From Methylococcaceae bacterium (GTDB lineage Bacteria > Pseudomonadota > Gammaproteobacteria > Methylococcales > Methylomonadaceae): a stretch of DNA of 64,000 bases. Position numbers and translations under genes: made by a program. The notes beneath the pieces are model-generated. The model was given only the letters and a program-made list of their open reading frames with translations. It made no database searches and was not told the origin of the DNA. This document shows, piece after piece, positions 1-60,745 of the stretch (position 1 is its first letter; the number at the start of each line of letters is the position of its first letter). The stretch lies in contig JBNLBS010000019.1 in the NCBI GenBank assembly GCA_050303415.1, forward strand, positions 16,545-80,544, written 5' to 3'.

Positions 1-1
1 T

Positions 2-982
2 TTAAAGATCGTCAGGCGTCAGTTTATTTTGTATTTGTACAGCATAATTACCATCGGAAATACCAATTTTACCTTCAAAAACCGGTACACCAGCCGCCTT
101 TAATATTACCGTTTCAGGTAATTCCACAGGAATCACATCACCCTGCTTGAATTCCATAATCTGTTTCAATGGAAGTGTTTTTTCCAGCAATAAGCTATTC
201 ACTTCCACTTCTGTACGTAACAACTCAAAGCGCAAAGAATCCTGCCAACGACTATCTACTTCTCCACGATCACTGGATACCGCATCAAGCAAATCCCTGA
301 TTGGCTCAATCATTGAATACGGCATGGTGATATTAATGTCACCGCCACCACCTTCCAATTCAACATGAATTGTCGAGATAACCACAATTTCAGATGGGCT
401 GACTATATTGGCAAACTGCGGATTCACTTCGGAGTTCATATATTCCAAATCCACATCCATAACAGGCTTCCAGGCTTCTTTAATATCCTTAAAAATCATT
501 TCCATCATCATCCTGATGACGCGCATCTCAGTTGGAGTAAACTCCCGCCCTTCAACCTTATTATAAAATTGTCCGGTACCACCAAAAAAATTATCCACCG
601 CCGTAAAAACCAGTCGTGGCTCCATCACAATTAGAGCTCTCCCACGTAAAGGCGAAAATTTAATTACATTCAGATTGGTCGGAACAAACAAGCCCTGAAC
701 ATATTCAGAAAATTTTTGCACCTGAATACCGGAAATAGAGATTTCCGCCGAACGCCGCAAAAAGTTGAACAAGGTAATACGAAAATATCTGGCAAAGCGC
801 TCATTAATCATCTCCAGAGTCGGCATTCGACCACGAACGATACGCTCCTGACTGTTAAAGTCATAGCTTTTCGCTCCGGCATCAGTTTCCTGACCATCAC
901 CTTCAGTATCTATATCGCCATCATCAACACCATGCAATAAGGCATCGATTTCATCTTGTGAGAGTAAATCAGCTGTAGCCAT
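2..982 (-). CDS. fliM: Flagellar motor switch protein FliM (complete; stop at 2-4)
   Basis: Translation MATADLLSQDEIDALLHG...FliM N-terminal CheY-P binding motif and overall length ~326 aa; adjacent to fliL. Confidence 0.9.
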   Translation of the reverse strand: MATADLLSQDEIDALLHGVDDGDIDTEGDGQETDAGAKSYDFNSQERIVRGRMPTLEMINERFARYFRITLFNFLRRSAEISISGIQVQKFSEYVQGLFVPTNLNVIKFSPLRGRALIVMEPRLVFTAVDNFFGGTGQFYNKVEGREFTPTEMRVIRMMMEMIFKDIKEAWKPVMDVDLEYMNSEVNPQFANIVSPSEIVVISTIHVELEGGGGDINITMPYSMIEPIRDLLDAVSSDRGEVDSRWQDSLRFELLRTEVEVNSLLLEKTLPLKQIMEFKQGDVIPVELPETVILKAAGVPVFEGKIGISDGNYAVQIQNKLTPDDL

Positions 983-983
983 G

Positions 984-1481
984 TTATTGCATTACAAACG
1001 CTGTAAAAAAAACTTCTTTAATTTGAGTCTTTTCTTCCATTTTTTCCATTACCTTTATAATTTCCTGCTTGATCGCATTACGCAATTGTTCCTTGCCTTC
1101 TCGTGTAGCAAAGCCATTAACATCCTGGGAACCAATCAACATTAATAAATTATTTCGAATCATCGGTTCATGTTTGGTCAAAATATCCGGGGTTCCATCA
1201 TCCTCAACAAGTAATGACAAAGACACCTGTACAAGCTTGGCAATCGACCCCGAAGGAAAGTCTACAATTAAAGGGTCCGCCATATAAAAGTAAGTTTCAT
1301 TTTTAACGGCAACCTGCTCTTCATCAACAGAGTCTTTGGGCGTATCAGTCATTAAAAAAAAGTAAACCGCTATTCCACCCGCACTTAATAACAAGACGGT
1401 TGCTACTATTATGATCAGCTTTTTAAAGGAACGCTTTCCACCCTCTTCACCCAATTCAAATTCCTGCTCACTCTCTGCCAT
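984..1481 (-). CDS. fliL: Flagellar basal-body-associated protein FliL; real start probably the ATG at 1479-1481 (MAESEQ...) preceded by GGAGAAGGG RBS, not the TTG at 1499
   Basis: Single TM helix after charged N-terminus, FliL-like C-terminal domain, position upstream of fliM. Confidence 0.8.
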   Translation of the reverse strand: MAESEQEFELGEEGGKRSFKKLIIIVATVLLLSAGGIAVYFFLMTDTPKDSVDEEQVAVKNETYFYMADPLIVDFPSGSIAKLVQVSLSLLVEDDGTPDILTKHEPMIRNNLLMLIGSQDVNGFATREGKEQLRNAIKQEIIKVMEKMEEKTQIKEVFFTAFVMQ

Positions 1482-1771
1482 ATTAAGACCCTTCTCCAAT
1501 TTTTAAATGCAAGCAAAACCTAAGCCAAATTATATTATTTTATAAAAAACAATACATTACCAATGCGCTAGAAAATACCCTATCAATAAATGCTTTGTCA
1601 AAAAACAGATATTTGACGCTCGGCCACACTATCCACACCTATTTTAACCGACTATAGTACACAATTAATGGACAGTATATACATAAAGCATGATTTACTA
1701 CAGTCACAAAAAAAGGGTAAAACCATAAAAGTATTACCCTTATTTTAAATGTTTGATTCAACACATTACAT

Positions 1772-2928: not shown

Positions 2929-2945
2929 GCCCATTTATTTTAAGC

Positions 2946-2980
2946 TATAAAAAAAGCCCTTTCGGGCTTTTTTTATAGCT
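2946..2980. terminator. Bidirectional rho-independent terminator between the convergent receiver/Hpt gene and fimV
   Basis: AAAAAGCCCTTTCGGGCTTTTT perfect hairpin flanked by A-run and T-run. Confidence 0.7.
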
Positions 2981-11541: not shown

Positions 11542-11606
11542 AACAACAGAGCAACATGTATTAGATTAAAAGCCCCTCATAATGGGGCTTTTTTAATGGA
11601 AAAAGC

Positions 11607-15867: not shown

Positions 15868-15940
15868 TTTACTCTGTCTAAAGCAAAAAAGGCAAGTATT
15901 GCCGAACAAGAAAAAATAAATTTGTTTAAAAGTTATCGGC

Positions 15941-15999
15941 TTGTAATCCATAGATTACAAAACATTGATTTTTTTGTAATCTATGGATTACAAAACATA
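15941..15999. repeat. Two 25-nt near-identical repeats (TTGTAATCCATAGATTACAAAACAT / TTGTAATCTATGGATTACAAAACAT) 9 nt apart. Each core is a 16-nt imperfect palindrome and the two cores are reverse complements of each other
   Basis: Read directly from the sequence; lies in the intergenic region between rhlE and the GlcG-like gene. Confidence 0.6.
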
Positions 16000-16239
16000 A
16001 TTTTTCATGATTTTGCACCAAAATAGTACTTTTGTACAATACAAACACAAAAAACTTGTCCTTATAATCAGATTCAGATTCACTCAGAATGAATCATAAC
16101 AACCAACCGGCATTGCCAACGGATTGGAGGTGATAAGAGAGGGGGGTGGACTTTCCTTATGCTGGAGGGGTTAATTTGAATAGGAATATCTGTATTCCAT
16201 AATGTTTAATTTAATACTCCAAGTTCAGAGGATAATAAT

Positions 16240-17034: not shown

Positions 17035-17168
17035 TAAATCTGCTCTTTATAGTACTGCATATGTCCGATAGAAACACTATCGGGCATATGTTGATATACT
17101 TAGGATCATTCAATCCATATCTAGTAAAAACAAAAACTTTCAAACTTAAAACTGCTTTAAACTTTCAA

Positions 17169-17963
17169 ATGGCATGCAAAAAATTGTCAATATTGTTTTT
17201 CCCAGTATTATTTTTAATAATTACGGGCTGCAGCATAAAAAAAAACCTTGATCCCGATATATCTTCATTTAGTTGCGCAATTTCTTCGCCTCAAGGTACC
17301 TCAGATAAAGCCACAGAGCTTGCTCATACGATTCAGTTGGAAAACGAAGGCGATAAACAGTTTTTTGCTAAAGACTACGACAACGCTTTCGATTGTTATA
17401 ACCATGCGTTAGAACTTAAAATAAAAAAGTTTGGTTCCAAACATCTATCTCTGATTCCGAATTTATATAATTTGGCTACTGTTTACGAAGTTAAGCAAGA
17501 TTATAAAGCCGCCAATTCTTTATATGGAAGATCACTGAATATTTTAAAAAAACAAAAACGAGCATCTGCTTATAATTCATATCAGGGCTATCAGACAGCC
17601 ATCTACTATAAAACAAACACTTCAAACGATATCATGCAGCTTCAAAACGCATTGTTAGCTTTTCAGCAGATTCATAATCCCACTAATATTCGTGTTGCAG
17701 CAATTCAACATAGACTGGCAAATATTTACCTGACAAACAAAAATTTCTTAAAATCTGAAAACGCTTTCCAGAAAGCTATTTCTATATTGCATAGATATAC
17801 GGGTAACAAACATCCATACTATGCAAAAATATTAACTGATTTTACCAAGCTTCTTGAATTAACAGATAGAACCCAACAGGCATCAAAGTTTAAAAAACAA
17901 GCTGACGTAATTTTTCAAAGCTATCCCAAAAAACTACATACCAAACTTTATTCACCAGATTAA
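17169..17963 (+). CDS. Lipoprotein with TPR-like repeats; likely start MACKKLS at 17169 (lipobox LIITGC)
   Basis: Signal peptide with lipobox, repeated Y/A/L-rich helical motifs (AFDCYNHALELK, LYNLATVYEVKQDYKAANSLYGRSL). Confidence 0.5.
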   Translation: MACKKLSILFFPVLFLIITGCSIKKNLDPDISSFSCAISSPQGTSDKATELAHTIQLENEGDKQFFAKDYDNAFDCYNHALELKIKKFGSKHLSLIPNLYNLATVYEVKQDYKAANSLYGRSLNILKKQKRASAYNSYQGYQTAIYYKTNTSNDIMQLQNALLAFQQIHNPTNIRVAAIQHRLANIYLTNKNFLKSENAFQKAISILHRYTGNKHPYYAKILTDFTKLLELTDRTQQASKFKKQADVIFQSYPKKLHTKLYSPD

Positions 17964-18043
17964 AAAAAGGATTTAGGTTTCCCAAAAATCGACGGGGTCA
18001 AGACTTGCATAGTGCATTTATAAAAAAAGCTTTGGCCATTACC

Positions 18044-18300
18044 CACTCCCCTTACACCACGCCGAGCATCGCAGTTTTTCGGTAAAATAGCCCGAAGGGT
18101 GATCACAAGGATGAGATCATTTGACAGCGGGGCTTGGATGCCCCGTTTGGCAAACCTAGTGAAAAACAAGAAGCTCAGGGGGCTTTCGTGGTGTAGGGTC
18201 GATTTTATTTGGTTACTTTCTTTTGTCGACGCAAAAGAAAGTGACTCGGCTTCGCGGACGAGCCCGCGATTAAAACAGAGGATTCGAAAAAAAATTAAAC
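18044..18300. other. Highly structured non-coding region: long-range inverted repeat (CCCTTACACCACG at 18048 / CGTGGTGTAGGG at 18187) and an 11-bp perfect hairpin ACTTTCTTTTG-tcgacg-CAAAAGAAAGT (18214-18241)
   Basis: Complementarity read directly; no convincing ORF (only repeat-derived antisense ORF). Confidence 0.4.
18106..18167. repeat. Copy A of a ~55-nt hairpin repeat family (core CGGGGCTTGGATGCCCCG)
   Basis: About 80% identical to 37683-37745 over the aligned ~55-nt core (ca. 37683-37741); GGGGC-N6-GCCCC stem-loop. Confidence 0.55.
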
Positions 18301-18606
18301 AAATTGGCTGAAAAACATGATTTAATTTCTCCTCCGCCAAACCCTCTCGGCAATTGCTCCTTCTTTGCCCTACCTTCTGCATCCTTGCAGTTGTCCATCA
18401 GGAGAGGGCTTATCTTCAAATGAAATTGAGAAAAAGGAGGCAAGCCTTAAATTTGACGTTTCATTTTTCCACTACTCAGTTTTTTGACCAAGTGCTAATA
18501 TAGCTCTAGATGATTCACTTTTTCTAAGCTATGTCTAACCGGCTCCAGAATGAAACACTTTGTACTGCAAACCAACATTACCCCACCCTTTCCAAAGCAT
18601 TTAAAA

Positions 18607-19101
18607 ATGGCTTTATTCGGGATGGGCTGCTTTTGGGGGGCGGAACGATGCTTCTGGCAAATTCCGGGTATCTACACTACTGCGGTAGGTTACAGCAATG
18701 GCGAGATTGAAAACCCGACTTATAAACAGGTTTGTACGGGATTAACCGGACATAATGAGGTGGTCAGGGTGGTTTATGATCCAAAACTGACACCCTACCA
18801 GCAATTACTGGAAACTTTTTGGCAAGCACATAATCCTACTCAAGGTATGAGGCAAGGCAATGATATTGGCAGCCAGTACCGCTCCGGTATTTATACCTAT
18901 GATCAACAGCAACTGGAAACAGCGGAAGTATCCAAGCTGCATTATCAAAAGCGTTTGTCACCAGGAGGATTTGCTTCTATTACCACCGAAGTAATACCAG
19001 CCACTACCTTTTATTATGCTGAAGATTACCATCAACAATACCTGGCAAAAAACCCTGACGGATATTGCGGTCTGGGCGGCTTGGGAATACCGTTTAATTA
19101 A
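18607..19101 (+). CDS. msrA: Peptide methionine sulfoxide reductase A; start likely [11 protein letters not shown] at 18607
   Basis: GCFWG catalytic motif, ~165 aa. Confidence 0.9.
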
Positions 19102-19683
19102 AACCAACACAATACTATCACAAGTGAAATAGCGTATTAATACTGATCTCAAACCAAATAAAGAAATCTTTTTTATACAATGAAAATTATTTTATTGGCT
19201 TTAAAACATTAAAGCTGGATATTATAACCGTGAAATAAAAAGGGATAATATTGCAATAAGTACTTATAACTACCAGCCTAATAAAAAAGCAATATAATTG
19301 ATTTATATCAATAGGTTATGAATTTTATGCTGATTTTTTTACAAAAAAAAGGTGGTTTAAAACCACCTCAGGATATTAGGAAGGATATAACGCAACTTTT
19401 AGCTGTTAACCTTAAAAATTTAAGGCCTTAAAAGTTAGAATAATAATAGCAATACTTTTTGCAAAGAAAAATGTGACATATTGTCGCACCCCTGATATTG
19501 CACTATTAAATATTCATACTACTTCACATAATCTATAAAAAAATTAGTTTAATTACTTTTATTTATTATCTAAATTACTGACTAAAAATCTTTATTTTCA
19601 ATGTGTTAACAATTTGGCGCATTTTTTTTCATTCAATGTCATAATAAATCGACTAGCAGCAACCGCTTTTTTATATTTAATCC

Positions 19684-29364: not shown

Positions 29365-29642
29365 TCGGTGACGACATAAAATTCATCATCATATAAATGA
29401 CATTCATTTTGAAAAAAATTGGGGCAAAGGAGTAGGTTTTGAGTAAGGCAATATTTATGGAGAAAATATTGACAAGCATTTTTAATAACATGCCAAAACA
29501 TAATGCCGGATATCTTCGTCAGCCTACGAGCAGCCTCGTATTCAAAGTCACGATCGAATATACTTCACCGGATACGGTATTTCTCAGGCACCATTATCGT
29601 CATGGTTTTTTATAATTCAGTTTTGCCTAAATTGATCCGTTT

Positions 29643-29666
29643 AAATGTAGATCGAAATCTACGTTT
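29643..29666. promoter_or_regulatory. 10-bp inverted repeat AAATGTAGAT-cgaa-ATCTACGTTT ~100 nt upstream of the MCP gene
   Basis: Read directly; candidate operator. Confidence 0.35.
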
Positions 29667-29771
29667 GAATTCCTTTTATATAAGCATTTTGCTAATCGAG
29701 GAAGGTTATAGTTTTTAGATAAAAAACCGGCCGGATCAATACATCGTTTATTAATTTTTAAAGAGACTTAT

Positions 29772-32105
29772 ATGAAAATAAAGCACAAACTCACACTTGG
29801 CACAGTTTTGTTAACCCTTTTTTCAACAATTGCCGCCTGCGTGGGTTTAGGCTGGCTTGCAATACAGTCATCCAACGAAACATTACGCTCCGAAGCAATG
29901 CGCCACATGGTCTCTGTTCGTGAAATCAATAAATTACGGATTGAACAATATTTTAAACAAATAAACAACCAGCTACTGACCTTGGCTAATGACCGTATGA
30001 TCATAGATGCCGCCAATAGTTTTAAAGCTGCAACCGCTAGTCTGGATAATGAATTCATGCCAAATACAACAAGCGGCTTGCGCGAACAGTTAAGCCAATA
30101 TTACACGCGCCAGTTTGCTGTTGAATACAACAAACAAAACGACAGCCAACAGCAGATCAATACCCGCTCGTTTTTAGAAAGATTAGACTCTACCGGTACC
30201 ACCCTGCAATACCTGTATATTCAAAACAACCGTCATCCATTAGGAGGTAAAGATGCTTTAATGCAAGCCGATGACGGAAGCCAATATAGTCAACTGCATG
30301 GTTTGTACCACCCACACATTAGAGACTACCTGAAGAAATTCGGTTATTACGATATTTTTATCGTGGATCCAGATACCGGAATGGTCGTTTATTCGGTTTT
30401 TAAAGAAATCGATTTTGCAACCTCACTCAAAAACGGTTCTTTTGCTAAATCCGGGCTGGGTAAAGCATTCGAACGGGCTAACAGGCTTTCCTCACCAAGT
30501 ACTGTGCTGGAAGATTTTGAGCCCTATGCACCGTCTTACGACTCGTCCGCAGCTTTCATGGCGACGCCTATTTTTGACCACGGCCAAAAAGTTGCCATTC
30601 TTATTTTCCAAATGCCAATCGATAAAATCAACAATATAATGACGAATAACGGCAACTGGGAATCTGTCGGCATGGGAAAATCGGGCGAGTCCTATATAGT
30701 TGGCGCCGATTTTAAAACCCGCAGTATGAGTCGATTTTTAATTGAAGACAAACCCGGCTATCTTCAAGCGTTAGAGAAAACCGGGGTTGACAAACAAATC
30801 ACCAATACGATCAGCAGCAAAAACTCCAATATCGGCCTGCAATCTGTTCGAACTAAAGGTGTGCAAGCCGCGTTGTCCGGCATATCGGGAAGTGATATTT
30901 TTACCGACTATCGCGGCGTATCGGTTTTATCAGCCTATGCGCCACTCAATATATTCGGCGTTAATTGGGCTATATTGACAGAAATAGATGAAGCCGAAGC
31001 CTTTGCACCGGCAATAAAACTGCAAAATACTATAATTATTGTTGCCTTAGCCGTTCTGGTGGCAGTCGCTATTGTTTCCACTTTTGCCGCAACACTGTTC
31101 ACCAATATATTGTCGCGTCCAATTACTGCATTTAGTAAGGCAATTGAAAAAATCGTAGCAGGTAATCGGATTGATTTAACGCAACGACTGGACACTTCCG
31201 CCAAAGATGAATTTGGTGAGTTGGCCACGCATATTAATCATCTGTTGGTAAAAAAACAGGATGCCGTACATAAAATTCTGGAGGCCAGCAACCAACTGAG
31301 TGCCGCTACTGATAGAGTAATGGCGGTTTCCACTCGAACCCAACAAAATATCTTTGAGCAGCAGCAACAAACCGAATCGGTTGCGACTGCTATGAATGAA
31401 ATGACCGCAACCGTTAACGATGTCGCCAAAAATGCCGCTCAAACTGCAAGCAGAGCAAATGATGGTGACCTACAAGCCCAAAGCGGAAAAAATGATATTT
31501 CCAATACCATTATTTCAATTAACCAGCTCTCTTCTGATATTTCATCAGCCGAAAATGTCGTTAAAGAACTGGAAAAACAAAGTAACGATATTGGCTCGGT
31601 GTTGGATGTTATTAGAGGTATTGCCGAGCAAACCAATCTATTAGCACTGAACGCGGCGATTGAAGCTGCGCGCGCGGGCGAACAAGGCCGTGGCTTTGCC
31701 GTAGTTGCTGATGAAGTTAGAACGCTTGCCAGTCGGACCCAGGTATCCACTGAAGAAATCCAGTCCATGATTGAGAAATTGCAACAAGGTGCTAAAAATA
31801 GTGCCGATGTGATGACCCGAAGCTCACAAAATGCGTTGGAAACAGCCAAGCAGGCTCAAACAGGTCAACAGGCACTGGATAATATTACCGACATGATCGC
31901 AGAAATTAATGACATGACAGCCATGATCGCCAGTGCTTCGGAAGAGCAATCAGCTGTGGCGGAAGAAATTAATGCTAATGTCATCAAGATCAGCAATTAT
32001 GCACAAGAGACATCGGAAGGTAGCCAGGAAACAACCCTCAGCAGCCAGGAAATGCAAAATCTATCTGCCCAGCTGTTAACCACTATGCAAACATTTATTG
32101 TTTAA
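29772..32105 (+). CDS. Methyl-accepting chemotaxis protein with large periplasmic sensor domain, HAMP and MCP signalling domain
   Basis: Two TM helices flanking ~390-aa periplasmic region, HAMP, highly conserved [31 protein letters not shown]. Confidence 0.85.
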
Positions 32106-32125
32106 TCATTACTGCGCTTGATATT

Positions 32126-32162
32126 AAAAACGAGGAAAAACAAAATGTTTTCCCTCGTTTGG
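32126..32162 (+). terminator. Rho-independent terminator of the MCP gene
   Basis: CGAGGAAAAACA-aaa-TGTTTTCCCTCG hairpin followed by TTTGG. Confidence 0.55.
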
Positions 32163-32326
32163 CTATCTGGCTTAGTAGAGTGGAAAACGTGGGGTGGAAA
32201 AACGCAGTGCATTCCACCAATCCCACCGACATTGTTTTAGGCATTTGTGGTTACCCAGTGTCGGATTATACCCAAAGGGCACAAGCGCTATCGCTCATCC
32301 AACCTACGCTCCTTCCGGCTTAATGG

Positions 32327-33034: not shown

Positions 33035-33248
33035 ACATTTAATTTATTAGGATTATTCCCTGATGACTTTTAACAACGGAAAACTAAATATACGCAAGCA
33101 GCCGGCAATAGCAATGCTTTATACATTGCATGCTGTTTGTTACAGGTTGAGTTAGGTCTTCCGTTTCAGGAAGGCCGTGCAGTTGCCTTCCAACTTATTA
33201 AAGTTTCAGTAGAAACCCCGGTTGGATCTCTGCCAACCGGGGTTTTTT
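33035..33248 (+). ncRNA. Candidate small transcript (sRNA or mRNA for a 28-aa peptide MTFNNGKLNIRKQPAIAMLYTLHAVCYRLS) ending in a strong rho-independent terminator
   Basis: Consensus promoter upstream. Internal hairpins are present. Terminator AAACCCCGGTTGG-atctctg-CCAACCGGGGTTTTTTATT lies at 33213-33250. Confidence 0.3.
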
Positions 33249-33530: not shown

Positions 33531-33603
33531 CTCGAGGATAGCTCAATGGGTAGAGCGGTTGACTCATAATCAACTTGTTAAGGGTTCAAGTCCCTTTCTT
33601 CGA
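33531..33603 (+). tRNA. tRNA-Met (anticodon CAT)
   Basis: Manual cloverleaf folds in full: 7-bp acceptor TCGAGGA/TCTTCGA with one G-U pair, D-arm GCTC-AATGGGTA-GAGC, anticodon stem GTTGA/TCAAC with loop CTCATAA, T-arm AAGGG-TTCAAGT-CCCTT. CCA is not encoded. Confidence 0.7.
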
Positions 33604-33606
33604 TCC

Positions 33607-33674
33607 TGGAAAAGTAGCTCTTGGTGAGCCCGGATGATAAATCCGTTTATGTAGGTTCGAATCCTACCTTTTCA
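33607..33674 (+). other. Degenerate tRNA-like element: intact acceptor, T-arm GTAGG-TTCGAAT-CCTAC, but D-loop and anticodon loop only 5 nt each; 3 nt downstream of tRNA-Met
   Basis: Manual folding: GGAAAAG...CTTTTCA acceptor with 1-72 mismatch, D GCTC-TTGGT-GAGC, AC-stem CGGAT-GATAA-ATCCG; 68 nt, too short for a canonical tRNA. Confidence 0.35.
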
Positions 33675-34005
33675 CTTTTAACCTGCAACACAGGTTTATT
33701 TTGATCTTCGGATCGTAGGGTCGGCGCCAGTCGGCGAATATGGAGTTTGTTTGACAAAGGATGTTGGAGACAACGGCGTATTGGCTTTGCATGGTGTCAG
33801 CCGGATAAAGTTCAGAACAGTTTATTGATACAGGTCCATTCGATGGGCGCGCTTGACAGGATGTCCACATCAGCAAACAGGTCTTTACTTTTTCCGCCAG
33901 ACAACATCCGCCAATAGGTCGTGGCGCCGAACCTAAATTTTTACCAATAAGGATTTAAACAATAATACTGCCTTAAAAGGCAACAAAAAGGGAATGGAGG
34001 GAACA

Positions 34006-35145
34006 ATGTTTATCAAACGATTTATCATTGCCGAAAATGAACGCGGTTTGTTTTTTCACAACCGGACTTTACAGGACATTATGGAATCCGGCGTCTACAC
34101 CTTTGTCGATTGGCGCAACCGGATTAAAGTCGAAATTTTCGACTTGAACGAACCGGTTTTTAAACACAGTCTGGAGGATGTGTTGTTAAAGCAGCACGAG
34201 GATTTATGCAAAACCTATTTCCAGGTCATCCAGCTGAATGAAAACCAAGTAGGTTTGGTCTACCGCAACGGCCTATTATCTGAGGTGTTACCGCCTTCTA
34301 CCAGAACGTTTTACTGGAAAGGTTTGATTGATATAGACGTTGAAGTCATCGACATTAAATCCGATTTTCAATTGGATGCAGACAAGACCCGGTTATTGAC
34401 CCGTGTGCGAGATGCTGCATTGGTCAGGGTTTTGGCTAACTACATCACTGTTGCCGAAGTGGCGGACCAGCATGTCGGTTTATTGATTGTCGACGGTCAG
34501 TTGATCAAGGAATTACAGCCTGGTGTCTATGCATTTTGGCGTTTCAACCGCTCGATTAAAGTCGAAATGGTCGATAAACGGGTTCAAATGATGGAAGTCT
34601 CAGGTCAGGAAATTTTGACCGGAGACAAAGTGTCATTACGAATCAATCTGTCAGTGGCCTTTCAAATACAGGATGCGGTGAAAATACGTTCAGCATTCAA
34701 GGATATGTTCGATTACTTGTACCGCGAATTGCAATTCGGTTTACGACAAGCGGTAGCCGGTAATACGTTGGATAATTTATTAGCGGAAAAAGGTTCGGCC
34801 GAACAATGTGTATTTAAATACATTTTGGAAAGGATTCAAGATTGCGGTATTCGCTTTATTACAGTCGGTATTAAAGACATTATTTTGCCGGGTGATATGA
34901 AGTCGATTTTAAACCAGTTAGTGGAGGCGGAAAAACAGGCTCAGGCCAATGTTTTAAAACGCCGCGAAGAAACCGCAGCAACCCGGTCATTGCTGAACAC
35001 TGCAAAATTGATGGATGAAAATCCAACTTTAATGCGTTTGAAAGAGCTGGAGGTTTTGGAAAAAGTCACCGGCAAAATTGACCGCATGACCGTTTTCGGC
35101 GGTTTGGAAGGTGTCTTAAAAGATACCGTTAAAATCAATGTGTAA
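34006..35145 (+). CDS. SPFH/band-7 (stomatin-prohibitin-flotillin) domain protein. Its N-terminus has two extra tandem copies of the SPFH N-terminal beta-unit. Start ATG 34006 after GGAGGG
   Basis: C-terminal LRINLSVAFQIQD...ITVGIKDIILPGDMKSILNQLVEAEKQAQANVLKRRE SPFH core is present. Three internal repeats begin ERGLFFHN..., ENQVGLVYRNG... and DQHVGLLIVDG..., each followed by G-Y-F-W and the [IV]KVE/DVEV motif. Confidence 0.7.
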   Translation: MFIKRFIIAENERGLFFHNRTLQDIMESGVYTFVDWRNRIKVEIFDLNEPVFKHSLEDVLLKQHEDLCKTYFQVIQLNENQVGLVYRNGLLSEVLPPSTRTFYWKGLIDIDVEVIDIKSDFQLDADKTRLLTRVRDAALVRVLANYITVAEVADQHVGLLIVDGQLIKELQPGVYAFWRFNRSIKVEMVDKRVQMMEVSGQEILTGDKVSLRINLSVAFQIQDAVKIRSAFKDMFDYLYRELQFGLRQAVAGNTLDNLLAEKGSAEQCVFKYILERIQDCGIRFITVGIKDIILPGDMKSILNQLVEAEKQAQANVLKRREETAATRSLLNTAKLMDENPTLMRLKELEVLEKVTGKIDRMTVFGGLEGVLKDTVKINV

Positions 35146-35172
35146 CTATCAGATCTTCTTGGTTAAGCACCA

Positions 35173-35193
35173 TTGCAGTGTTAAACACTGCAA
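35173..35193. promoter_or_regulatory. 21-nt perfect palindrome TTGCAGTGTTaAACACTGCAA in the SPFH-rtcB spacer, followed by a second GC hairpin (GACCCGGGcaatggGGCTCGGGTC)
   Basis: Read directly from sequence. Confidence 0.4.
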
Positions 35194-35260
35194 ACTGATT
35201 TGTTACATAGAGCAGGAATAAGACCCGGGCAATGGGGCTCGGGTCGATGAGGATAAGATT

Positions 35261-36457
35261 ATGCCTATAAAAATGAAAATGACAAAAGGCAAGGTACCGG
35301 TCAAAGTTTGGACCGAAGATATTGAATACGGTGCCATTCAGCAATTATGCAATATCGCGCAAATGCCGTTTATCCATAGTCATGTTGCGGCCATGCCTGA
35401 TGTGCATCAGGGGATTGGCGCAACCGTGGGTTCGGTGATACCGACCAAGGGCGCCATTATACCTACCGCAGTGGGTGTTGATATCGGCTGCGGAATGAAT
35501 GCGGTCAGGTTAACGCTTAAAGCTGAACAATTACCGGACACTCTAAAACCGGTGCGTAACGCCATTGAAGCGGCCGTACCTGTCGGCTTTGCCATGCATA
35601 ACAAAGATATGGCCAGACATTCGACCATTATTGCTTTGGCCGAACCATTGGGCCGATTACAGGAAAAGCATCCGGCGATCAAAAAAATGCAGAAAAAGCC
35701 ATTTCAAACCTGGGTTAGACAACTGGGTACTTTGGGTGGCGGCAACCATTTTATTGAACTGTGCCTGGATGAAAGCAACGACGTCTGGATTATGCTGCAT
35801 TCCGGCAGTCGGGGTATTGGTAATGCGATCGGACGTTACTTTATCCAGTTGGCCAAAAAAGATATGGGGCAACAACTGGGACATTTACCGGATAAGGATC
35901 TGGCCTATTTTACTGAAGGTGCACAATACTTTGAGGATTATGTCGAAGCCGTGCATTGGGCGCAGGATTATGCCATGTGGAATCGCAGGGAAATAATGCG
36001 TTCGATAGTTGATGCATTGAAAGACGTCCTGCCGCGATTTCAAGTCAGCAAGGAAGCGATTAATTGCCATCATAATTATGTTGCGCTCGAACAGCATTTC
36101 GGGGAACAGGTTTATCTGACCCGCAAAGGGGCGATCAGTGCCGGCCAAGGCGAGCTGGGTATTATTCCCGGCAGCATGGGGGCCAAGTCCTATATCGTTC
36201 GGGGTAAAGGTTGTGCCGCTTCATTTCATTCCTGCTCACATGGTGCTGGCCGGGTAATGAGTCGTTCACAGGCCAAAAAACGCTACAGTTATCGGGATGT
36301 CGAAGCGCAGACTGAAGGCATTGAATGCCGAAAAGACAGCGGCGTTATCGATGAAATTCCGGCGGCCTATAAGGATATTGATCACGTAATGGAGAACCAA
36401 TCAGACTTGGTTGAGATTGTACATACCCTGAAACAAGTCGTTTGCGTCAAAGGATAA
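35261..36457 (+). CDS. rtcB: RNA-splicing ligase RtcB (3'-phosphate/5'-hydroxyl RNA ligase)
   Basis: Conserved metal/GTP-binding residues pattern: VGVDIGCGM, GGGNHFIE, HSGSRG, CHHNY, full length 398 aa. Confidence 0.9.
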   Translation: MPIKMKMTKGKVPVKVWTEDIEYGAIQQLCNIAQMPFIHSHVAAMPDVHQGIGATVGSVIPTKGAIIPTAVGVDIGCGMNAVRLTLKAEQLPDTLKPVRNAIEAAVPVGFAMHNKDMARHSTIIALAEPLGRLQEKHPAIKKMQKKPFQTWVRQLGTLGGGNHFIELCLDESNDVWIMLHSGSRGIGNAIGRYFIQLAKKDMGQQLGHLPDKDLAYFTEGAQYFEDYVEAVHWAQDYAMWNRREIMRSIVDALKDVLPRFQVSKEAINCHHNYVALEQHFGEQVYLTRKGAISAGQGELGIIPGSMGAKSYIVRGKGCAASFHSCSHGAGRVMSRSQAKKRYSYRDVEAQTEGIECRKDSGVIDEIPAAYKDIDHVMENQSDLVEIVHTLKQVVCVKG

Positions 36458-36506
36458 GCCGGATGTTCGGTTGGGCATCCGGTTTTATTGCAACAGGAAA
36501 ATTGTT

Positions 36507-37484
36507 ATGAAACTGGAAACTATTAAAGAAATTATTGAAATCATGCCTAAAGGTAAAACCAGATTTCACTATTTTAAAGATCGCTACGCTTTAATGTTGT
36601 TATCCGATTTAATTGAAGACGGGATTAAACTTTCCGAGCTTAAGACGACACCTTGGGCAAAACTGTTGAACCGACCGCTGGTTAAAAGCTTGAGCTCCCA
36701 GTGTGGTGACGGTGTGCTTTATAAGCATGATCTGGACAGTATCTGGCCGGATTTTACCAGGCAGTTTTTACTTACATTAAGCCAATGGGGCGGAGAACGG
36801 GCAAGCTGGCAACAAACCTGCCGACATGGCTACAATCTGGTATTGCAACTGAATTTCAGCAATCAGCATCATGCCTTGTTTAACAAACTGCTAAGGCCGA
36901 TGAAACATCATAGCCTACGCAGTTGCGGGCATCCGGTTATGCAGCCGGATGAACGTGAGTTATTTCGGGAAACACTGGCCTGGGCACGTATAGATCTGGA
37001 TTTTGACCGCAATGAAGCCCTGATTGAAGAAATTCAAAACGACTGGCTTAGGAATGCGCTATGGTGGTTGAGTTATGTCAAAAGATGTCAAAAAAATCAA
37101 CGACGGTTACCCGCAAATTACTGTTTGCAGACCGACTTGGAAAAAGTCCAAAGCTATTGCGATAAAGTATTAATGCCATACCGCAAAATGTGGGATGAAG
37201 CGATGTTGGCGGCCAGCATCGATTTTATCTACAAGCAGCTGGGTATAAACGTCATTTATTATCACAGCTACGAAAGCGGCGCCTGGTTAAAGTCCATCTC
37301 ATCTACGCTGCCGCCTCGGTCTTTATATACCGATTTACCTAAGCGCTTTTGTTTTACCTGTACCGAACAGGAGCCGACTTTCCTATCTGAAGATCGGTAC
37401 TTTAGAAACCGTAAACGCAAGGGTAAACACCTAAACTATTACTGGTATAGGATGGATTTGGGAGCTGGTCATGTTACGGCCTAG
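36507..37484 (+). CDS. Hypothetical Cys/His/Trp-rich protein co-transcribed with rtcB (start probably MKLETIKEI at 36507 after AGGAAA)
   Basis: 325 aa, no recognisable motif; CGDG, CRHG, CGHP, CFTCTEQ Cys clusters; 50-nt gap from rtcB. Confidence 0.45.
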   Translation: MKLETIKEIIEIMPKGKTRFHYFKDRYALMLLSDLIEDGIKLSELKTTPWAKLLNRPLVKSLSSQCGDGVLYKHDLDSIWPDFTRQFLLTLSQWGGERASWQQTCRHGYNLVLQLNFSNQHHALFNKLLRPMKHHSLRSCGHPVMQPDERELFRETLAWARIDLDFDRNEALIEEIQNDWLRNALWWLSYVKRCQKNQRRLPANYCLQTDLEKVQSYCDKVLMPYRKMWDEAMLAASIDFIYKQLGINVIYYHSYESGAWLKSISSTLPPRSLYTDLPKRFCFTCTEQEPTFLSEDRYFRNRKRKGKHLNYYWYRMDLGAGHVTA

Positions 37485-37682
37485 GAACTATGTCGCTCGT
37501 TCACCGATGTTACGCAAAGGCGGCGTGCACGAGCGTTGTCAATCCGGTAAACGCCAACAGCAAAAACAGGATCTAAAGGGTGAACTGGACTCTTTGGCGT
37601 TGACTGATCATGACCTGGAAGAAAATCAGCTAAACCCAGATGCCAATAAAAATACCGAGGAGTTTTTTAGTTAATTAACTCA

Positions 37683-37745
37683 AAGGGATAAGAGCATGTG
37701 ACAACGGGGCCTGGATGCCCCGCCTGACAAAACCACTTAAAAAAT
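37683..37745. repeat. Copy B of the ~55-nt hairpin repeat family (core CGGGGCCTGGATGCCCCG)
   Basis: Aligns with 18106-18167; generates spurious antisense ORF sharing RGIQAPLS. Confidence 0.55.
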
Positions 37746-37771
37746 AGTTAAGTACCAGAGATACTAGACAC

Positions 37772-39469
37772 TTATATAGAGGTTCTTCTATATTGCCGGT
37801 ATTCAGGAAACCAAAAGTTTTCAGCGATAGCCTGTTTAAGTTCCTCGGCGGATATTTTTTTGGCAACCTTATCTTCCATCGCCTGCATCCCTACAGCAAA
37901 GGCAATCGTCCGGCTCAGCTTACGAATATCCTTCAAAGCGGGCAACAAATCCTGACTGTCCCCCAATACCCAGGGCGAACAATCTGCCAACGCCTTACTG
38001 GCTGCCATAAACATATTATCGGTCACATACTCCGCAGCGCAGGCCACAACACCCAAGCCGACACCCGGAAAAATATAACTATTATTGCATTGGGCAATAG
38101 CGTAAGATTGCCCCTCAAAAACAACGGGCTGAAAAGGACTGCCGGTAGCCACTATCGCATTTCCCTCTGTCCAGTTGATGACATCCTCAGGCAACACCTC
38201 AACCCGTGAAGTGGGGTTAGAAAGCGGTAAAACAATGGGTCTGGAGCAATGTTGATAGATGAACTCGATCATCTCCTGCGTAATCATTCCAGGCTGACCG
38301 GAAACGCCAATGATAATGCTGGGCTTGGCTCCTTTAACAGTATCCAGTAAATCCACTTTCGGGCTCGACATTCCCCAGTCATCTAGGATAGTCACGGGCT
38401 TGGCAAATTTTTCCTGAAAATCCTGAATTCTCTCATTTCCCTCCAGCAACAGACCCTGGCTATTACAAAGGAAAATGCGATCCAAAGCCTGCTGTTCCGA
38501 TACCCCCTCCAGTTGCATATGCGCAATAATTTGTTCGGCAATACCACAACCGGCGGAACCCGCACCGACAAACACAATGGTTTGATCTTTTAACGCTTTC
38601 TTCTGTACCCGGCAAGCGGCTAACAACGTGCCGACGGCAACAGCCGCCGTACCTTGTATATCATCATTAAAGGTACAAATATTCTGACGATATTTTTGCA
38701 GCAAAGGTGTGGCATGATGCTGGGCAAAATCTTCAAATTGAATCATGGCATGCGGCCAGCGACGCTTAACTCCAGCAATAAATTGATCTATAAACCGGTA
38801 ATATTCATCGCCGGTAATTCGCTCATGCCGCCACCCCATATATAAAGGATCACTTAGTAATTGCTGATTATTGGTACCTACGTCCAGGGTAACAGGCAGA
38901 GTATAGGCCGGACTGATACCACCGCAGGCGGAATACAATGCCAGTTTGCCGATAGGAATCCCCATACCGCCTATGCCCTGGTCGCCCAACCCCAAAATAC
39001 GTTCGCTATCAGTCACCACTATAATCTTGATTTTTTGTTTGGTCACATTTTGCAGAATATCGTCTATCTGATCACGTTCGGGGTAAGCAATAAAAATCCC
39101 CCGTTTGCGCCGATAAATTCGGGAAAACAACTGGCAGGCCAGACCAACAGTGGGTGTATAGATAACCGGCATCATTTCCGGCAGATAGGTAATAATCAAA
39201 CGAAAATACAAGGTCTCATTGGCATCCTGAATATTACGCAGATAAATGTGCTTATCCAGATCATTATTAAACTGGGAAAACTGTTGATAAGCACGCTCGA
39301 CTTGCTGCTCAATGGTTTCAACAACTTCCGGCAGCAAACCTTGCAAATTGAACGTCTGCCGTTCCTCCTGACTGAATGCGCAATCTTTGTTTAGCAGCGA
39401 AGTTTCTAATAAAGACTGCCCGGAATAATGAATGTATATAGGGCGTTTTTGATGATCTTCACTATTCAT
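37772..39469 (-). CDS. maeA: NAD-dependent malic enzyme; start ATG 39467-39469 (MNSEDHQ) after AAGGA
   Basis: 565 aa, malic-enzyme N-terminal and NAD-binding domains ([11 protein letters not shown] Rossmann motif). Confidence 0.8.
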
Positions 39470-54778: not shown

Positions 54779-56137
54779 TCAGCATGGAATAACAACTCCG
54801 GCATCTTTCATTCTGGCAATTTTATAGCGCAAAGTCCTTGGGCTGATACCTAATTTTTCTGCTGTCGATTTACGGCTGCCTTTTTCCTCATTCAAAGTTT
54901 GTAAAATAATTTTTTCCTCTGCTGAACGAATACCGTCACCTAAACTGGAAACTGAATCCTGCTCTTGTTTTTCAAAAACTTGGCTATCATCTGAGATTTT
55001 ATCCGTCAAAACAAAAGGCATATCATCCAAAATCAGGTCGTCGACTGTTATTTCGGATCCTGAAGACAAAATCAGCGCTCTTTGAACAACATTTTCCAAC
55101 TCGCGCACATTTCCCGGCCAGCTATAAGCTCGCATTTTTTCGACCGCATCCGCTGAAAAAACAGGGCGCTTTTGACCATTAGAACAATGCCTCTGCATCA
55201 ATTCCATTGCCAGTGGCAAAATATCATCAACCCGCTCTCGTAGAGCCGGTATACGCATAGGAAAAACATTTAAGCGATAATACAAATCTTCCCTAAACAA
55301 GCCATTATCAACTTGCTGTTTTAATTGCTGATTCGTTGCCGCCAAAATTCTGACATTTAATTTTATTTTTTTCTGGCTACCAATGCGCTCCACTTCTTTT
55401 TCCTGAAGCACACGTAACAGTTTAGCTTGTAATGCTAAATCCATTTCGGCAATCTCATCCAAAAACAAAGTACCCCCCTGAGCTTGTTCAAACTTGCCGG
55501 CCATCGATTGCACGGCACCGGTAAAGGCGCCTTTTTCATAACCAAATAACATGGCTTCCAGCATATTTTCAGGAATAGCTGCACAATTTACCGCGACAAA
55601 AGGTCCTTGATATTTGGAGTTGTGATGAATAAATTGGGCAAAAACTTCTTTACCAACACCGCTTTCACCCTGTAAAAACACCGCCACATCAGTTTTAGCC
55701 ACCTTTGCCGCCAGGGTATACAGTTTTTTCATACTATTATCATGAACCACCCTGTCATTAGCCGCACTTGGTTTAGCGGTCACATAATCATTCACCTTTG
55801 AAACCAGCGCACTGGCCTCAAAAGGCTTAATCAAATAATCGCTGGCGCCTGACTGCATCGCCTTTACCGCTTTGGACACTGTGCCATATGCTGTCATCAA
55901 CACCACCGGCGTTTCGCTGTATTGATTTTTAATGTTATACAATAACTGAAAGCCATCCATCACCGGCATTTGTACATCACTAATGACTATTTTAAATTTG
56001 TCTTTTGCCAGACAGGACATTGCTTCTGTTCCATTATTAGCCGAAATAACCCGATAACCTTCAATTTCCAAGGTATCGCACAATGCTTCGCACAAGGCTA
56101 TATCATCCTCAACAACTAACACATCATACTGATTCAT
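54779..56137 (-). CDS. fleR: Sigma-54-dependent two-component response regulator FleR/FlrC
   Basis: Receiver (LVVEDD..D53 region), AAA+ GESGVGKE, GAFTGA motif, C-terminal Fis HTH. Confidence 0.8.
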   Translation of the reverse strand: MNQYDVLVVEDDIALCEALCDTLEIEGYRVISANNGTEAMSCLAKDKFKIVISDVQMPVMDGFQLLYNIKNQYSETPVVLMTAYGTVSKAVKAMQSGASDYLIKPFEASALVSKVNDYVTAKPSAANDRVVHDNSMKKLYTLAAKVAKTDVAVFLQGESGVGKEVFAQFIHHNSKYQGPFVAVNCAAIPENMLEAMLFGYEKGAFTGAVQSMAGKFEQAQGGTLFLDEIAEMDLALQAKLLRVLQEKEVERIGSQKKIKLNVRILAATNQQLKQQVDNGLFREDLYYRLNVFPMRIPALRERVDDILPLAMELMQRHCSNGQKRPVFSADAVEKMRAYSWPGNVRELENVVQRALILSSGSEITVDDLILDDMPFVLTDKISDDSQVFEKQEQDSVSSLGDGIRSAEEKIILQTLNEEKGSRKSTAEKLGISPRTLRYKIARMKDAGVVIPC

Positions 56138-57371
56138 GAGTCACCTCTTGTTCGATCAGGCTTTTACCGGAAAACCCTCCCGGCAAGAAAGAGAATTTAT
56201 TGTTCTTATTCGGCAGGGATAAGGTAAAAGCCGTCCCCTTTCCGGGTTCCGAATCACAACGAATGATGCCGTTGTGGGCTCGAATAACATTCTCAACTAC
56301 CGCCAGGCCAAGACCGGTACCCTGTGATTTGGTAGTATAAAACGGTTCAAAAATTCGTTCACATTGGGCATTATTAATACCCGGACCATTATCAGAAATA
56401 ACGATGTCAATATTTTGTCCTGTCTGCTTTACCTTCATTTCTATTACTCCGGCTGAATCGGCCAAAGCCTCAACAGCATTGGTCAAAATATTCATTAAAG
56501 CACCCCGCAAGGCATTTTCATTACCTTGAAATTCGTCTTCAGCCAAACAACTTTGTAACCTGAAATTAATTGCTGATCCGACAAGGTCTTCCGCCATGTT
56601 TTCTTTTATCCGTTCAAATAAACCGGTCAAGGAAAAAGCCGTCATGGACAAACGGCCTTCCTTGGCAAACACCAGCATATCACTGACTTGTCTCTCCAAA
56701 TGCTGTAAACGTTCCAGAATTTTTTTCGAATAACGTTGACGTTTACCCTCATTTAATGCGGGATTACTCATTTGAGATGCATAGAGAATAGCGGTGGATA
56801 ACGGAGTTCTTACCTGGTGCGCCATACTGGCTACCATTTCACCCATTGAGGATAAATGCTTCTGCTGATTGACCATATCCTGTAAAGCATGCATTTCAGT
56901 GACATCAGATAATAAAATAACCTGTTCAGAATGCCCGGCCAATTGACTGCTGGTCAAACTGACCCGCTGACCATTTTTTAACTGCCTTTCATGCGGACTG
57001 TTAGATACAGACATCAAGCTGCGTTCAACTACTTGCTCCCAGGGTAAACCGATTAAAGGCTCTGCCAAATACTCCACGGCAATGGCATTACAATCCAACA
57101 CCTGTGAATGCGCATTTAAAATAACCACCGCCGCAGGTAAAGCGGCCATAATTTCCTGCAAACGATTGGCTATTTTCTCTTTCTCAACCAGTGTATTAAT
57201 ACGTTCTGTTCGTGCAGCAGAGAGCTCTTGGTGTAATTTGGCGACCTGTGCTTCCAGGCCTTGATAGGACTGGGTCAGGTTTTGAGATAACTGATTAAAG
57301 ATGCGAAACGCATCGGTCAGTTGTTCGGTCTTATGATTGTGCTGATGATCTAATGTACTCATTTTGCTCAT
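56124..57371 (-). CDS. fleS: Sensor histidine kinase FleS/FlrB (PAS + HisKA + HATPase)
   Basis: H-box MAHQVRTPL, G-boxes GTGLGL, soluble PAS-containing N-terminus; overlaps fleR start. Confidence 0.75.
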   Translation of the reverse strand: MSKMSTLDHQHNHKTEQLTDAFRIFNQLSQNLTQSYQGLEAQVAKLHQELSAARTERINTLVEKEKIANRLQEIMAALPAAVVILNAHSQVLDCNAIAVEYLAEPLIGLPWEQVVERSLMSVSNSPHERQLKNGQRVSLTSSQLAGHSEQVILLSDVTEMHALQDMVNQQKHLSSMGEMVASMAHQVRTPLSTAILYASQMSNPALNEGKRQRYSKKILERLQHLERQVSDMLVFAKEGRLSMTAFSLTGLFERIKENMAEDLVGSAINFRLQSCLAEDEFQGNENALRGALMNILTNAVEALADSAGVIEMKVKQTGQNIDIVISDNGPGINNAQCERIFEPFYTTKSQGTGLGLAVVENVIRAHNGIIRCDSEPGKGTAFTLSLPNKNNKFSFLPGGFSGKSLIEQEVTHESV

Positions 57372-57625
57372 TTCACTTTAAACAGATGTTTTTGTGAAAA
57401 AAGCAATTTTCAGGCCAAGACAATAAAATCAGACTAGGCAAACCTTCTGAATCCTGTATAAGAATGTCTTAAAACCGGAATATTCTTACCTCCATACCGG
57501 CCATTCCCACTCACTCCATATCCCAACGATCAATGTACCAGGAATCACGCAGTGATTTTGCCAGCACCCTTATTTATAAAGAAATTTAACGATAATTCCA
57601 ACCGTCAAAATAATGACATCTCCAA

Positions 57626-59062
57626 TTAACGATTTAAATCCAATTTTCGCATTTTCTCAACCAAGGTAGTACGTCCCATATTTAATCGCTTGGCGGCATG
57701 TGCGACTACACCATTACACTCAGCCAAGGCCTGTTTTATCAGCACACTTTCCATATCATTCAGATATTCTTTTAAATCGATACCCTGTTCCGGTATACCC
57801 GGTATAACGGAAGTAACCGTAACAGGAGCCTCCATTTCTGCCTCTGTCTGATTAATTTCAGGCTCTGGTTCATCCCGGTCAATTTTAAAATCCTCAGGAA
57901 CCACATAATTCTGAAATTTTTCCGGTAAATCTATGCAGTCAACCACGCCTTTGGGATTAATAATTGCCAAGCGTTCCACCAGGTTTGCCAGTTCCCTGAC
58001 ATTACCCGGCCAATTGTGCTGCATTAATAGCGCCAACGCATTATCGGTCAGCCTCACTGAACCACGATTTGCTGCTTCCATTCTGGCAATCAAATCCTTT
58101 ACCAGCAATGGAATATCTTCGGTACGCTCTCTTAAGGCAGGCATTTCAATAGGAAATACATTTAACCGGTAGAACAAATCCTCTCTAAAGCGGTTTGCAT
58201 TGATCTCATCTTCAAGATGCCTATGCGTGGCGGCAATAATGCGTACATCACAGTCAATTGTTTTATTACTGCCCACCCGTTCAAAAGTTCTTTCCTGCAG
58301 CACCCGGAGTAACTTCACCTGCATTGCCATAGGCATATCACCAATTTCATCCAGAAACAGCGTTCCACCCTCTGCCATCTCAAACCGCCCCTGCCGAGAA
58401 GTTAAGGCTCCGGTAAATGCACCTTTTTCATGCCCGAATAATTCACTTTCCAGTAATTCACCTGGAATCGCACCGCAATTAACCGGCACAAAAGGTTTGC
58501 TTCTCCGAGTTGATGAATCATGTAAAGATCTGGCCACAACCTCTTTACCGGTACCGGACTCACCCAGTATCAATACTGTGGCGTCCGACTCGGCAACCTG
58601 CTCGATCAATTGACATACTTGAGAAATCCCCTGGCTCTTACCCTTCAATTTCTGCCGGGCAATTGATGGTTTTGAGAATGCTTGAACAACCGTAGAAGTT
58701 TTTTCAGGTACTGGGATTTTTGCCATAAATGACTGCAAAACAGGATATGTTAAGGGCCATTCCAAAATACTTGATACGGTGTTATTTATCGCACTGGGTA
58801 CTTTTAGCGCTGTTCCCTTATCTATCAGTAAAACCAAAGGGATGTCACCAACCTGAGCCGATATATTTTTAATAATGGCGGCTTGTTTTTCCATCCCACT
58901 GCCGATAAATACAACGGACACGTCAGAAATATCGTTTAATCTGTCTTCATAATTTTCAGAATCACTTTGTTCTACAGAATATTCCATGAACTGGAAAATT
59001 GTTTCAAATTGCGATGACCTGAGTTTGCTATCATCAATTAACAAAATACCTGGCAATGCCAT
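57626..59062 (-). CDS. fleQ: Sigma-54-dependent master flagellar regulator FleQ/FlrA
   Basis: Atypical receiver-like FleQ N-domain, AAA+ sigma-54 activation domain ([14 protein letters not shown]), Fis HTH. Confidence 0.8.
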
Positions 59063-59368
59063 ATTATTTAACTCATCCGATAATTATGAAGTAAAACTAG
59101 ACGCTAAACTTAATTCAACCTTGTAATTAAGTAAAGTGACTGAATCCCAAAAAGAACCTTAACATTTAAATTTGCTTAAATTCCAGCTGGTCATCCTACA
59201 ATTAAACATAAAGTTAAGCATCGATTATAAAGCCTGTCAAAAATTCTTTTATATCAACTTGTTCAGACAGTTTCTTAATTCATTTTAATACCATTCGCCA
59301 GCAACATTATAGCTTAGATACTTGACAAATTTTTCTCATCATAGAAACTAGGGTTGTTTTAATAACTA

Positions 59369-60628: not shown

Positions 60629-60745
60629 GTACAATAATGCCGATAAAGAAATCGGTAATTGTTCGCGAAATTATGTTTTTTTTTAAGCACAAAAAACAAA
60701 CCGGACTATACTTAGTTTCTGTGGACGGGGTGATAAAAACAAATA

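Follow-up and report, generated by a model that had tools for sequence, protein, structure and literature searches.

REPs are short (20-40 bp) palindromes that form a stem-loop, have an unpaired tag (GTAG or CGTC) at one end, normally occur in tens to hundreds of copies and are often arranged as inverted doublets (REPIN/BIME). Copies also flank the gene of their cognate RAYT (REP-associated tyrosine transposase), and RAYTs mobilise hairpin repeats in the form of single-stranded DNA. Most REPs are extragenic and follow ORFs, in the spacers of unidirectional or convergent gene pairs, and a role in protecting or delimiting transcript 3' ends has been proposed for them (PMC3733652). Other described systems that invite comparison with a small structured element are MITEs (Correia/NEMIS, ERIC and those of the large sulfur bacteria), mRNA 3'-end stem-loops and 3'UTR-derived sRNAs, and the Csr/Rsm sponge sRNAs (CsrB, CsrC, RsmX, RsmY and RsmZ), which present GGA in hairpin loops.

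Here we describe a 43-nt hairpin module that occurs twice in a 64-kb stretch of DNA of ~42% GC from an uncultured gammaproteobacterium (the whole of this stretch is referred to below as the window). For one of the encoded proteins, the named homologues come from Gammaproteobacteria, including Methylococcales, Beggiatoa and hydrothermal-vent bacteria. Flagellar genes (fliM, fliL, fliE and fliF) are found at both ends of the window (1-1500 and 54779-61369; L021) and are accompanied there by genes for sigma-54 activators (a FleQ-like regulator and a two-component pair), which places the window within or beside a flagellar regulon. An earlier note on this DNA had reported two copies of a stem-loop element and had suggested either a REP/MITE-like repeat family or a family of sRNA genes. 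We tentatively favor the reading, at somewhat less than an even chance, that the two copies (A and B) represent a low-copy, lineage-restricted, REP-like extragenic hairpin module that spread as DNA and now lies downstream of plus-strand genes. The features on which this reading draws are collected in Table 1.

Table 1. Positions of the module copies and of associated features in the window
Feature	Position	Strand	Description	Match or remark
Variable stretch with copy A	17954-18465		512 nt; the sister-species counterpart is an unrelated 282 nt	
Antisense ORF over copy A	17960-18382	-	140 aa	NCBI record protein P0136
Closed structured domain	18050-18198	+	~150 nt; outer stem 18050-18067/18180-18198; inner hairpins UGAUCACAAGGAUGAGAUCA and the GC hairpin	
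Copy A	18103-18145	+	25-nt 5' arm TCACAAGGATGAGATCATTTGACAG and hairpin CGGGGC-TTGGAT-GCCCCG at 18128-18145	model R1, 89.5 bits
AT-rich hairpin	18211-18246		11-bp perfect core ACTTTCTTTTG/CAAAAGAAAGT	
Hairpin-2	18238-18277	+	stem-loop TCGCGG-ACGAGC-CCGCGA, then TTAAAAC	unrelated to the 43-nt module
Spacer B	37675-37771		97 nt, from the 67-aa ORF to the convergent malic-enzyme gene	block kept in sister species
Copy B	37680-37722	+	arm TCAAAGGGATAAGAGCATGTGACAA and hairpin CGGGGC-CTGGAT-GCCCCG at 37705-37722	model R1, 100.6 bits
RAYT	62803-63513	-	236-aa Y1/HUH protein	NF047646, 86.1 bits (cut-off 80)

Anatomy and number of the module copies

The two copies lie 19.6 kb apart at intergenic sites and in the same orientation. 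Alignment of copy A (TCACAAGGATGAGATCATTTGACAGCGGGGCTTGGATGCCCCG) with copy B (TCAAAGGGATAAGAGCATGTGACAACGGGGCCTGGATGCCCCG) by blastn yielded 43 nt in common at 83.7% identity (E 2e-6), which agrees with the ~80% identity that the earlier note gave for the core and refines the limits that it had placed at 18106-18167 and 37683-37745. For the ungapped extension given below, the local score was 58, as compared with 18.4 +/- 2.3 (maximum 28) in 500 shuffles, and the 23-nt core GACARCGGGGCYTGGATGCCCCG is present twice in the window with 0 occurrences expected from 100 shuffles. The most strongly conserved part is the CGGGGC-YTGGAT-GCCCCG stem-loop that had already been singled out, in which the stem is identical at 12/12 positions and the loop reads YTGGAT in both copies, while the 25-nt arm is identical at 19/25. 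The hairpin is perfect over 18 nt (6-bp stem and 6-nt loop) and extends to 22 nt with wobble pairs; on the plus strand of copy A, the stem lengthens to 8 bp via A-U and G-U pairs. The alignment can be extended without gaps to 18103-18166 and 37680-37743 (48 of 64 positions identical, 75%), but the flanks beyond the core, when tested on their own, were not significantly similar (P 0.19 for the upstream one and 0.62 for the other). The shared unit is therefore asymmetric, with the 25-nt arm on one side of the stem. Inspection by eye revealed no coding potential common to the two copies.

Within the window, an all-against-all comparison of the 30 spacers (10.2 kb) found A and B to be the sole similarity between different spacers. 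We also built a covariance model (R1) from copy A, copy B and the sister-species copy of B, and ran it with the filters off. It detected no third copy in the window, where the next best match scored 13.9 bits (E 1.3), and nothing besides orthologues of B in ~150 kb of related and control loci; likewise, ~19 kb of sister-species sequence contained no copy apart from the orthologue of B. An exact-core pattern, ACANCGGGGCNTGGATGCCCCG, was scanned against 185,579 species (one genome each), the JGI metagenomes and IMG/VR, and it returned only chance matches in unrelated, mostly high-GC DNA, the source genome apparently being outside the representative set. Five exact-core matches from the genome and metagenome collections were rejected, as none of the five had a matching flank and four were located in DNA of 66-73% GC; the fifth (L007, 56% GC) lies beneath a 135-aa minus-strand ORF that reads like coding sequence. 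When viral contigs were scanned with a looser pattern, eight matches were obtained, all of which were set aside since they cover the 18-nt hairpin alone. As a genome-wide proxy, we searched for ORFs that encode the module in any of the six frames and recovered only the window's own antisense ORF at 27 bits, a self-match so low that diverged copies would be missed by this approach. No match to the copy A region was found among plasmids, the core sequence does not occur in the literature searched, and HIP1 and TAACTGA repeats were not found.

The two sites in related genomes

Copy A is located in a gene-free spacer of 586 nt (17964-18549), which is considerably longer than the ~250-nt non-coding region described in the earlier note; the spacer follows a TPR gene (17061-17963, +) and precedes msrA (18550-19101, +). 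Copy B begins 6 nt past the stop codon of a 67-aa ORF on the plus strand, the last in the gene string Band_7 / RtcB / 325-aa / 67-aa, and on its other side a convergent malic-enzyme gene on the minus strand ends. Both copies are thus extragenic and downstream of ORFs, A between a unidirectional and B between a convergent gene pair, and each follows a gene on its own strand. The string of Band_7 (SPFH), 325-aa and overlapping 62-67-aa genes is itself conserved (33994-37674 in the window and 2457-4804 in L019). Its small 62-67-aa protein is basic at the N-terminus and acidic at the C-terminus, the 325-aa protein has ~1,800 homologues in Gammaproteobacteria, and neither of the two matches Pfam or NCBIfam. 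An RtcB gene interrupts this string in the lineage of the window and in its sister species, and apparently also in a 73% relative (L018); L019 lacks it.

Both loci are present in the same gene order in a sister species, represented by the Logan assemblies of SRR29270391 and SRR29270392. At locus B, the DNA identity is ~91% across 8 kb, and copy B is found at the same site (L016 8170-8241; model R1, 93.2 bits). There, the spacer holds copy B with eight differences, one of which changes the loop from CTGGAT to CGGGAT and keeps its GGAT. Spacer B is identical at 89/96 aligned positions, as compared with 0.78 at the third codon positions of the flanking genes (binomial P 1.2e-4) and 0.79 in four other tRNA-free spacers aligned at the locus (binomial P 2.6e-4). 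Identity is 39/43 in the core and 45/49 in the remainder, so the constraint spans the whole spacer and is not specific to the core. To judge from this alignment, the whole of spacer B has been under purifying selection and changes more slowly than synonymous sites. At locus A, gene identity is ~84%, and the stretch that contains copy A is replaced in the sister species (Table 1); only the ~85 nt proximal to msrA (18466-18549) align across the TPR-msrA spacer. This conserved portion includes TTGACC-N17-TAATAT, which is probably the msrA promoter, and copy A would accordingly not be part of that promoter. More distant relatives that keep the pair of 325-aa and small ORFs (73% and 58% protein identity) have no module downstream of it. 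Together, these comparisons indicate that copy B is fixed and constrained in a narrow clade and that copy A is a recent gain or loss. A separate variable island was observed at 29453-32319 of the window, with a 777-aa ORF whose place is taken in the sister species by V4R and Roadblock/LC7 genes (L016 924-2779); only the terminator hairpin at 32128-32160 is common to both.

The surroundings of copy A are strongly structured on both strands. The region 18040-18300 folds far better than its shuffled versions (z -4.6 for the plus and -3.7 for the minus strand), and the long-range inverted repeats that had been noticed there are real, consisting of a 12-nt pair (18050-18061/18187-18198) and a 13-nt pair (17974-17986/18146-18158) of 92% each. 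The 11-bp perfect hairpin reported alongside them sits inside 14-nt arms (18212-18225/18232-18245) and is overlapped by a promoter-like minus-strand site, TCGACA-16-TAAAAT (18229-18202). A further, long AT-rich palindrome is located elsewhere in the window, at 15940-16005 upstream of an HbpS-like gene; it is also a 33-nt tandem repeat (TTGTAATCCATAGATTACAAAA..., with a stem of 22-23 bp) and may be an operator or regulatory site. The antisense ORFs over the two copies, that of copy B spanning 37675-37866 (63 aa), share the peptide RGIQAPLS and are by-products of the repeat, as the earlier note had proposed. The 140-aa ORF over copy A has no Pfam match and falls in the stretch missing from the sister species; it is almost certainly spurious and probably an artefact of the repeat.

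Next to copy A, hairpin-2 (AAGTRACTCGGCTTCGCKGACGAGCCMGCGATTAAAAC) provides an instance of displacement. A 92.5% copy of it exists in the sister species at a non-orthologous site (L016 2628-2667), and two of the three differences constitute a compensatory exchange of G:C for T:A in the stem; no viral match to it was found. Judged by this pair of sequences, short hairpin modules are shown to move between sites in the lineage. Logan contigs of the same organism (SRR36185838) stop at ~18070 and restart exactly at 18248 (L004), where the hairpin-2 core begins; the similarity to the copy in the sister species stops at 18277. Such breaks are expected at repeats or polymorphic insertions in an assembly graph that we take to be of k=31. 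They could also reflect low coverage. As a result of the breaks, the segment 18071-18247 is absent from the independent Logan contigs and is represented only in the MAG assembly.

The window also encodes a RAYT, which matches E. coli TnpArep (PDB 4ER8), so the lineage has machinery of the kind known to mobilise hairpin repeats. The RAYT gene is flanked by a repeat of its own, AAATCAAG-TTGGCTGACCC-CTTGATTT, with two perfect tandem units of 37 nt at 63532-63605 and an inverted copy with 3 mismatches (62792-62818) that overlaps the gene at its 3' end. We found no significant similarity between this repeat and copies A and B. A TTTGYC-N3-stem layout on the minus strand of A and B recurs in the two tandem units and is absent from the third copy; with a background of 0.001 per position, we treat the common layout as a weak lead. 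A Logan contig carrying the RAYT gene extends over just 1,387 nt, suggesting that the assembly broke at the flanking repeats.

The module could instead be a functionless relic, that is, an old segmental duplication or gene-conversion patch in which part of spacer B was carried into the TPR-msrA spacer. We regard this as possible, though on the unlikely side. A relic would account for there being just two detectable copies, for the lack of common element-like termini, terminal inverted repeats and target-site duplications, and for a gapped alignment that hints at similarity reaching the last codons of the 67-aa ORF. That hint, however, belongs to the upstream extension which was not significant when tested alone, and divergence has spared the pairing part of the module (the stem) relative to its arm. 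The constraint upon spacer B is likewise not what a functionless sequence would be expected to show, and the displacement of hairpin-2 next to copy A demonstrates real movement of short hairpin modules in this lineage.

RNA-level readings of the hairpin

Another alternative, which we consider rather unlikely, is that A and B are paralogous sRNA genes or cis-acting RNA elements with GGA loops that bind a CsrA/RsmA-type protein. In this case, copy A would offer both a ACAAGGAUGA stem-loop and the UUGGAU loop of the module. GGAT is indeed invariant in the loops of all three sequences (TTGGAT, CTGGAT and CGGGAT), and a second GGAT occurs 23-27 nt upstream. In the minimum-free-energy fold of copy A, AGGA is placed in a tetraloop closed by CA/UG, which fits the high-affinity CsrA/RsmE consensus, (A/U)CANGGANG(U/A). 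The purifying selection on spacer B and the folding of region A, which is stronger on the plus strand, are both consistent with a functional RNA, and the arrangement of GGA in hairpin loops at two paralogous loci resembles the Csr/Rsm sponges. However, GGA is found at the background rate (0.0098 per nt): the copy A spacer (586 nt) contains 7 and spacer B (97 nt) contains 2, and the 126-nt domain surrounding copy A contains 2. The module thus has two GGA sites per copy, and it differs from the sponges also in having no GacA-type upstream box and no terminator. By eye, no GacA-type box, sigma-54 promoter or sRNA promoter is conserved between A and B, no promoter-like site is common to the two, and a U-tract terminator follows neither. 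Their homology is confined to 43 nt and lacks the ends that a gene needs. A csrA gene was not found in the window.

Database comparisons and phylogenetic distribution point in the same direction. Rfam 15 gave no relevant match at gathering scores across the whole window, nor at E<=10 in the two regions, and this includes CsrB, CsrC, RsmX, RsmY and RsmZ. An 18-nt match to 'CRISPR-DR16' (12 bits) was rejected, as it is merely the module hairpin. Copy A is missing in the sister species and copy B is missing in the distant relatives with the neighboring gene pair, so conservation reaches no further than one sister species. Taken together with the absence of a common promoter or terminator, these results give no positive support to the sRNA gene family put forward in the earlier note. 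A tRNA, tmRNA or tRNA-like origin was rejected as well, since the ARAGORN and Rfam tRNA matches are only at 33532-33675. The latter site consists of a tRNA-Met (CAT) followed, after one base, by a weak second tRNA-like sequence (Rfam 31.4 bits, just above gathering, with no ARAGORN call), which may be a degenerate or unusual tRNA.

A more elaborate proposal would combine the DNA and RNA levels, and we consider it improbable. The 43-nt module and hairpin-2 would then form an undescribed, tag-less REP-like class mobilised by the window's RAYT, and copy B would have been co-opted as a conserved RNA element of transcript 3' ends, where the invariant GGAU in its loop would bring an RNA-binding protein such as CsrA to the ends of the convergent RtcB-operon and malic-enzyme transcripts. 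Very improbable in our view is the weakest named alternative, in which the copies are ordinary intrinsic (Rho-independent) terminators that came to resemble one another by convergence on a GC-rich stem: both do lie downstream of genes, B between convergent genes where a terminator is expected, and the stem is a perfect 6-bp GC helix, but a terminator scan gave 0 sites in both regions, the hairpin tails contain <= 2 T in 8 on either strand, the clear bidirectional terminators of the window (2943-2980, 11568-11592, 19349-19369, 32128-32160 and 33211-33247) carry A and T tracts, and convergence would leave 25 nt of common sequence upstream of the stem unexplained. The remainder of the probability falls to other explanations that involve DNA-binding sites.

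A proposed REP-like module and its relation to known systems

Under the REP-like reading that we prefer, copy A would have been acquired through DNA-level copying, either by HUH/Y1-type mobilisation or by recombination, and not through vertical descent at that site. Copy B, and perhaps A, would form the 3' end of the transcript from the upstream operon, where the GC hairpin might stop exonucleases that act 3'-to-5' or, after factor-dependent termination, define where the transcript ends. By analogy with the role proposed for REPs, the module is probably a 3'-end RNA stem-loop, and such a role would explain the selection on spacer B. If the module proves to be multi-copy genome-wide, it would constitute a REP-like family that lacks the GTAG/CGTC tag, in a RAYT-carrying gammaproteobacterial lineage that has been poorly sampled, and it would bear on how RAYTs choose their substrates. 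If there are truly two copies, spacer B becomes a candidate 3'-end regulatory RNA beside the RtcB RNA-repair operon. The consequence for annotation would be the same either way, in that the 140-aa 'protein' across copy A is to be read as a repeat artefact. The module touches upon no long-standing open question.

Among the known systems, MITEs resemble the module in being small, non-coding and structured, and copy A in particular lies in a species-variable spacer, within a domain of ~150 nt that 12-nt inverted repeats close off. These inverted repeats, however, exist at copy A only and have no flanking direct repeat. The common part is the 43 nt rather than a whole element, and the homology between A and B stops at the hairpin. 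The MITE-like reading of the earlier note is consequently unsupported, because the copies have neither common terminal inverted repeats nor target-site duplications. The mRNA 3'-end stem-loops and 3'UTR-derived sRNAs are comparable in that each copy follows a same-strand gene, that the GC stem is stable and lacks a U tract, and that spacer B is constrained; a simple exonuclease block, on the other hand, needs no sequence-conserved arm of 25 nt.

An 18-22-nt hairpin agrees with the short palindromic stem-loop of a REP, and the placement of both copies, between the unidirectional TPR and msrA genes and between the convergent 67-aa ORF and malic-enzyme gene, is that typical of REPs. One of the two copies (A) occupies a site that varies between close species, and the genome encodes a RAYT with flanking inverted hairpin repeats. 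The module departs from REPs in several respects. Copy number is the weak point of the comparison, as two copies were seen in 64 kb and none besides the orthologues of B in the related and control loci. The conserved part of the module is asymmetric, the 25-nt arm being present on a single side of the stem. The GTAG or CGTC tag and its complements are missing from the hairpin flanks (copy A, TTTGACAG / TTTGGCAA; copy B, TGTGACAA / CCTGACAA), neither copy has an inverted partner nearby, and the window's RAYT is flanked by a different hairpin repeat instead. Since these three defining features are lacking, formal membership among the REPs is unproven, and of the REP-like reading first proposed for this DNA, it is the anatomy, the extragenic placement and the variable spacer that stand, while the tag, the doublets and the RAYT flanking do not. 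The module is therefore best filed as a new, sparsely populated entry in the known class of extragenic hairpin repeats.
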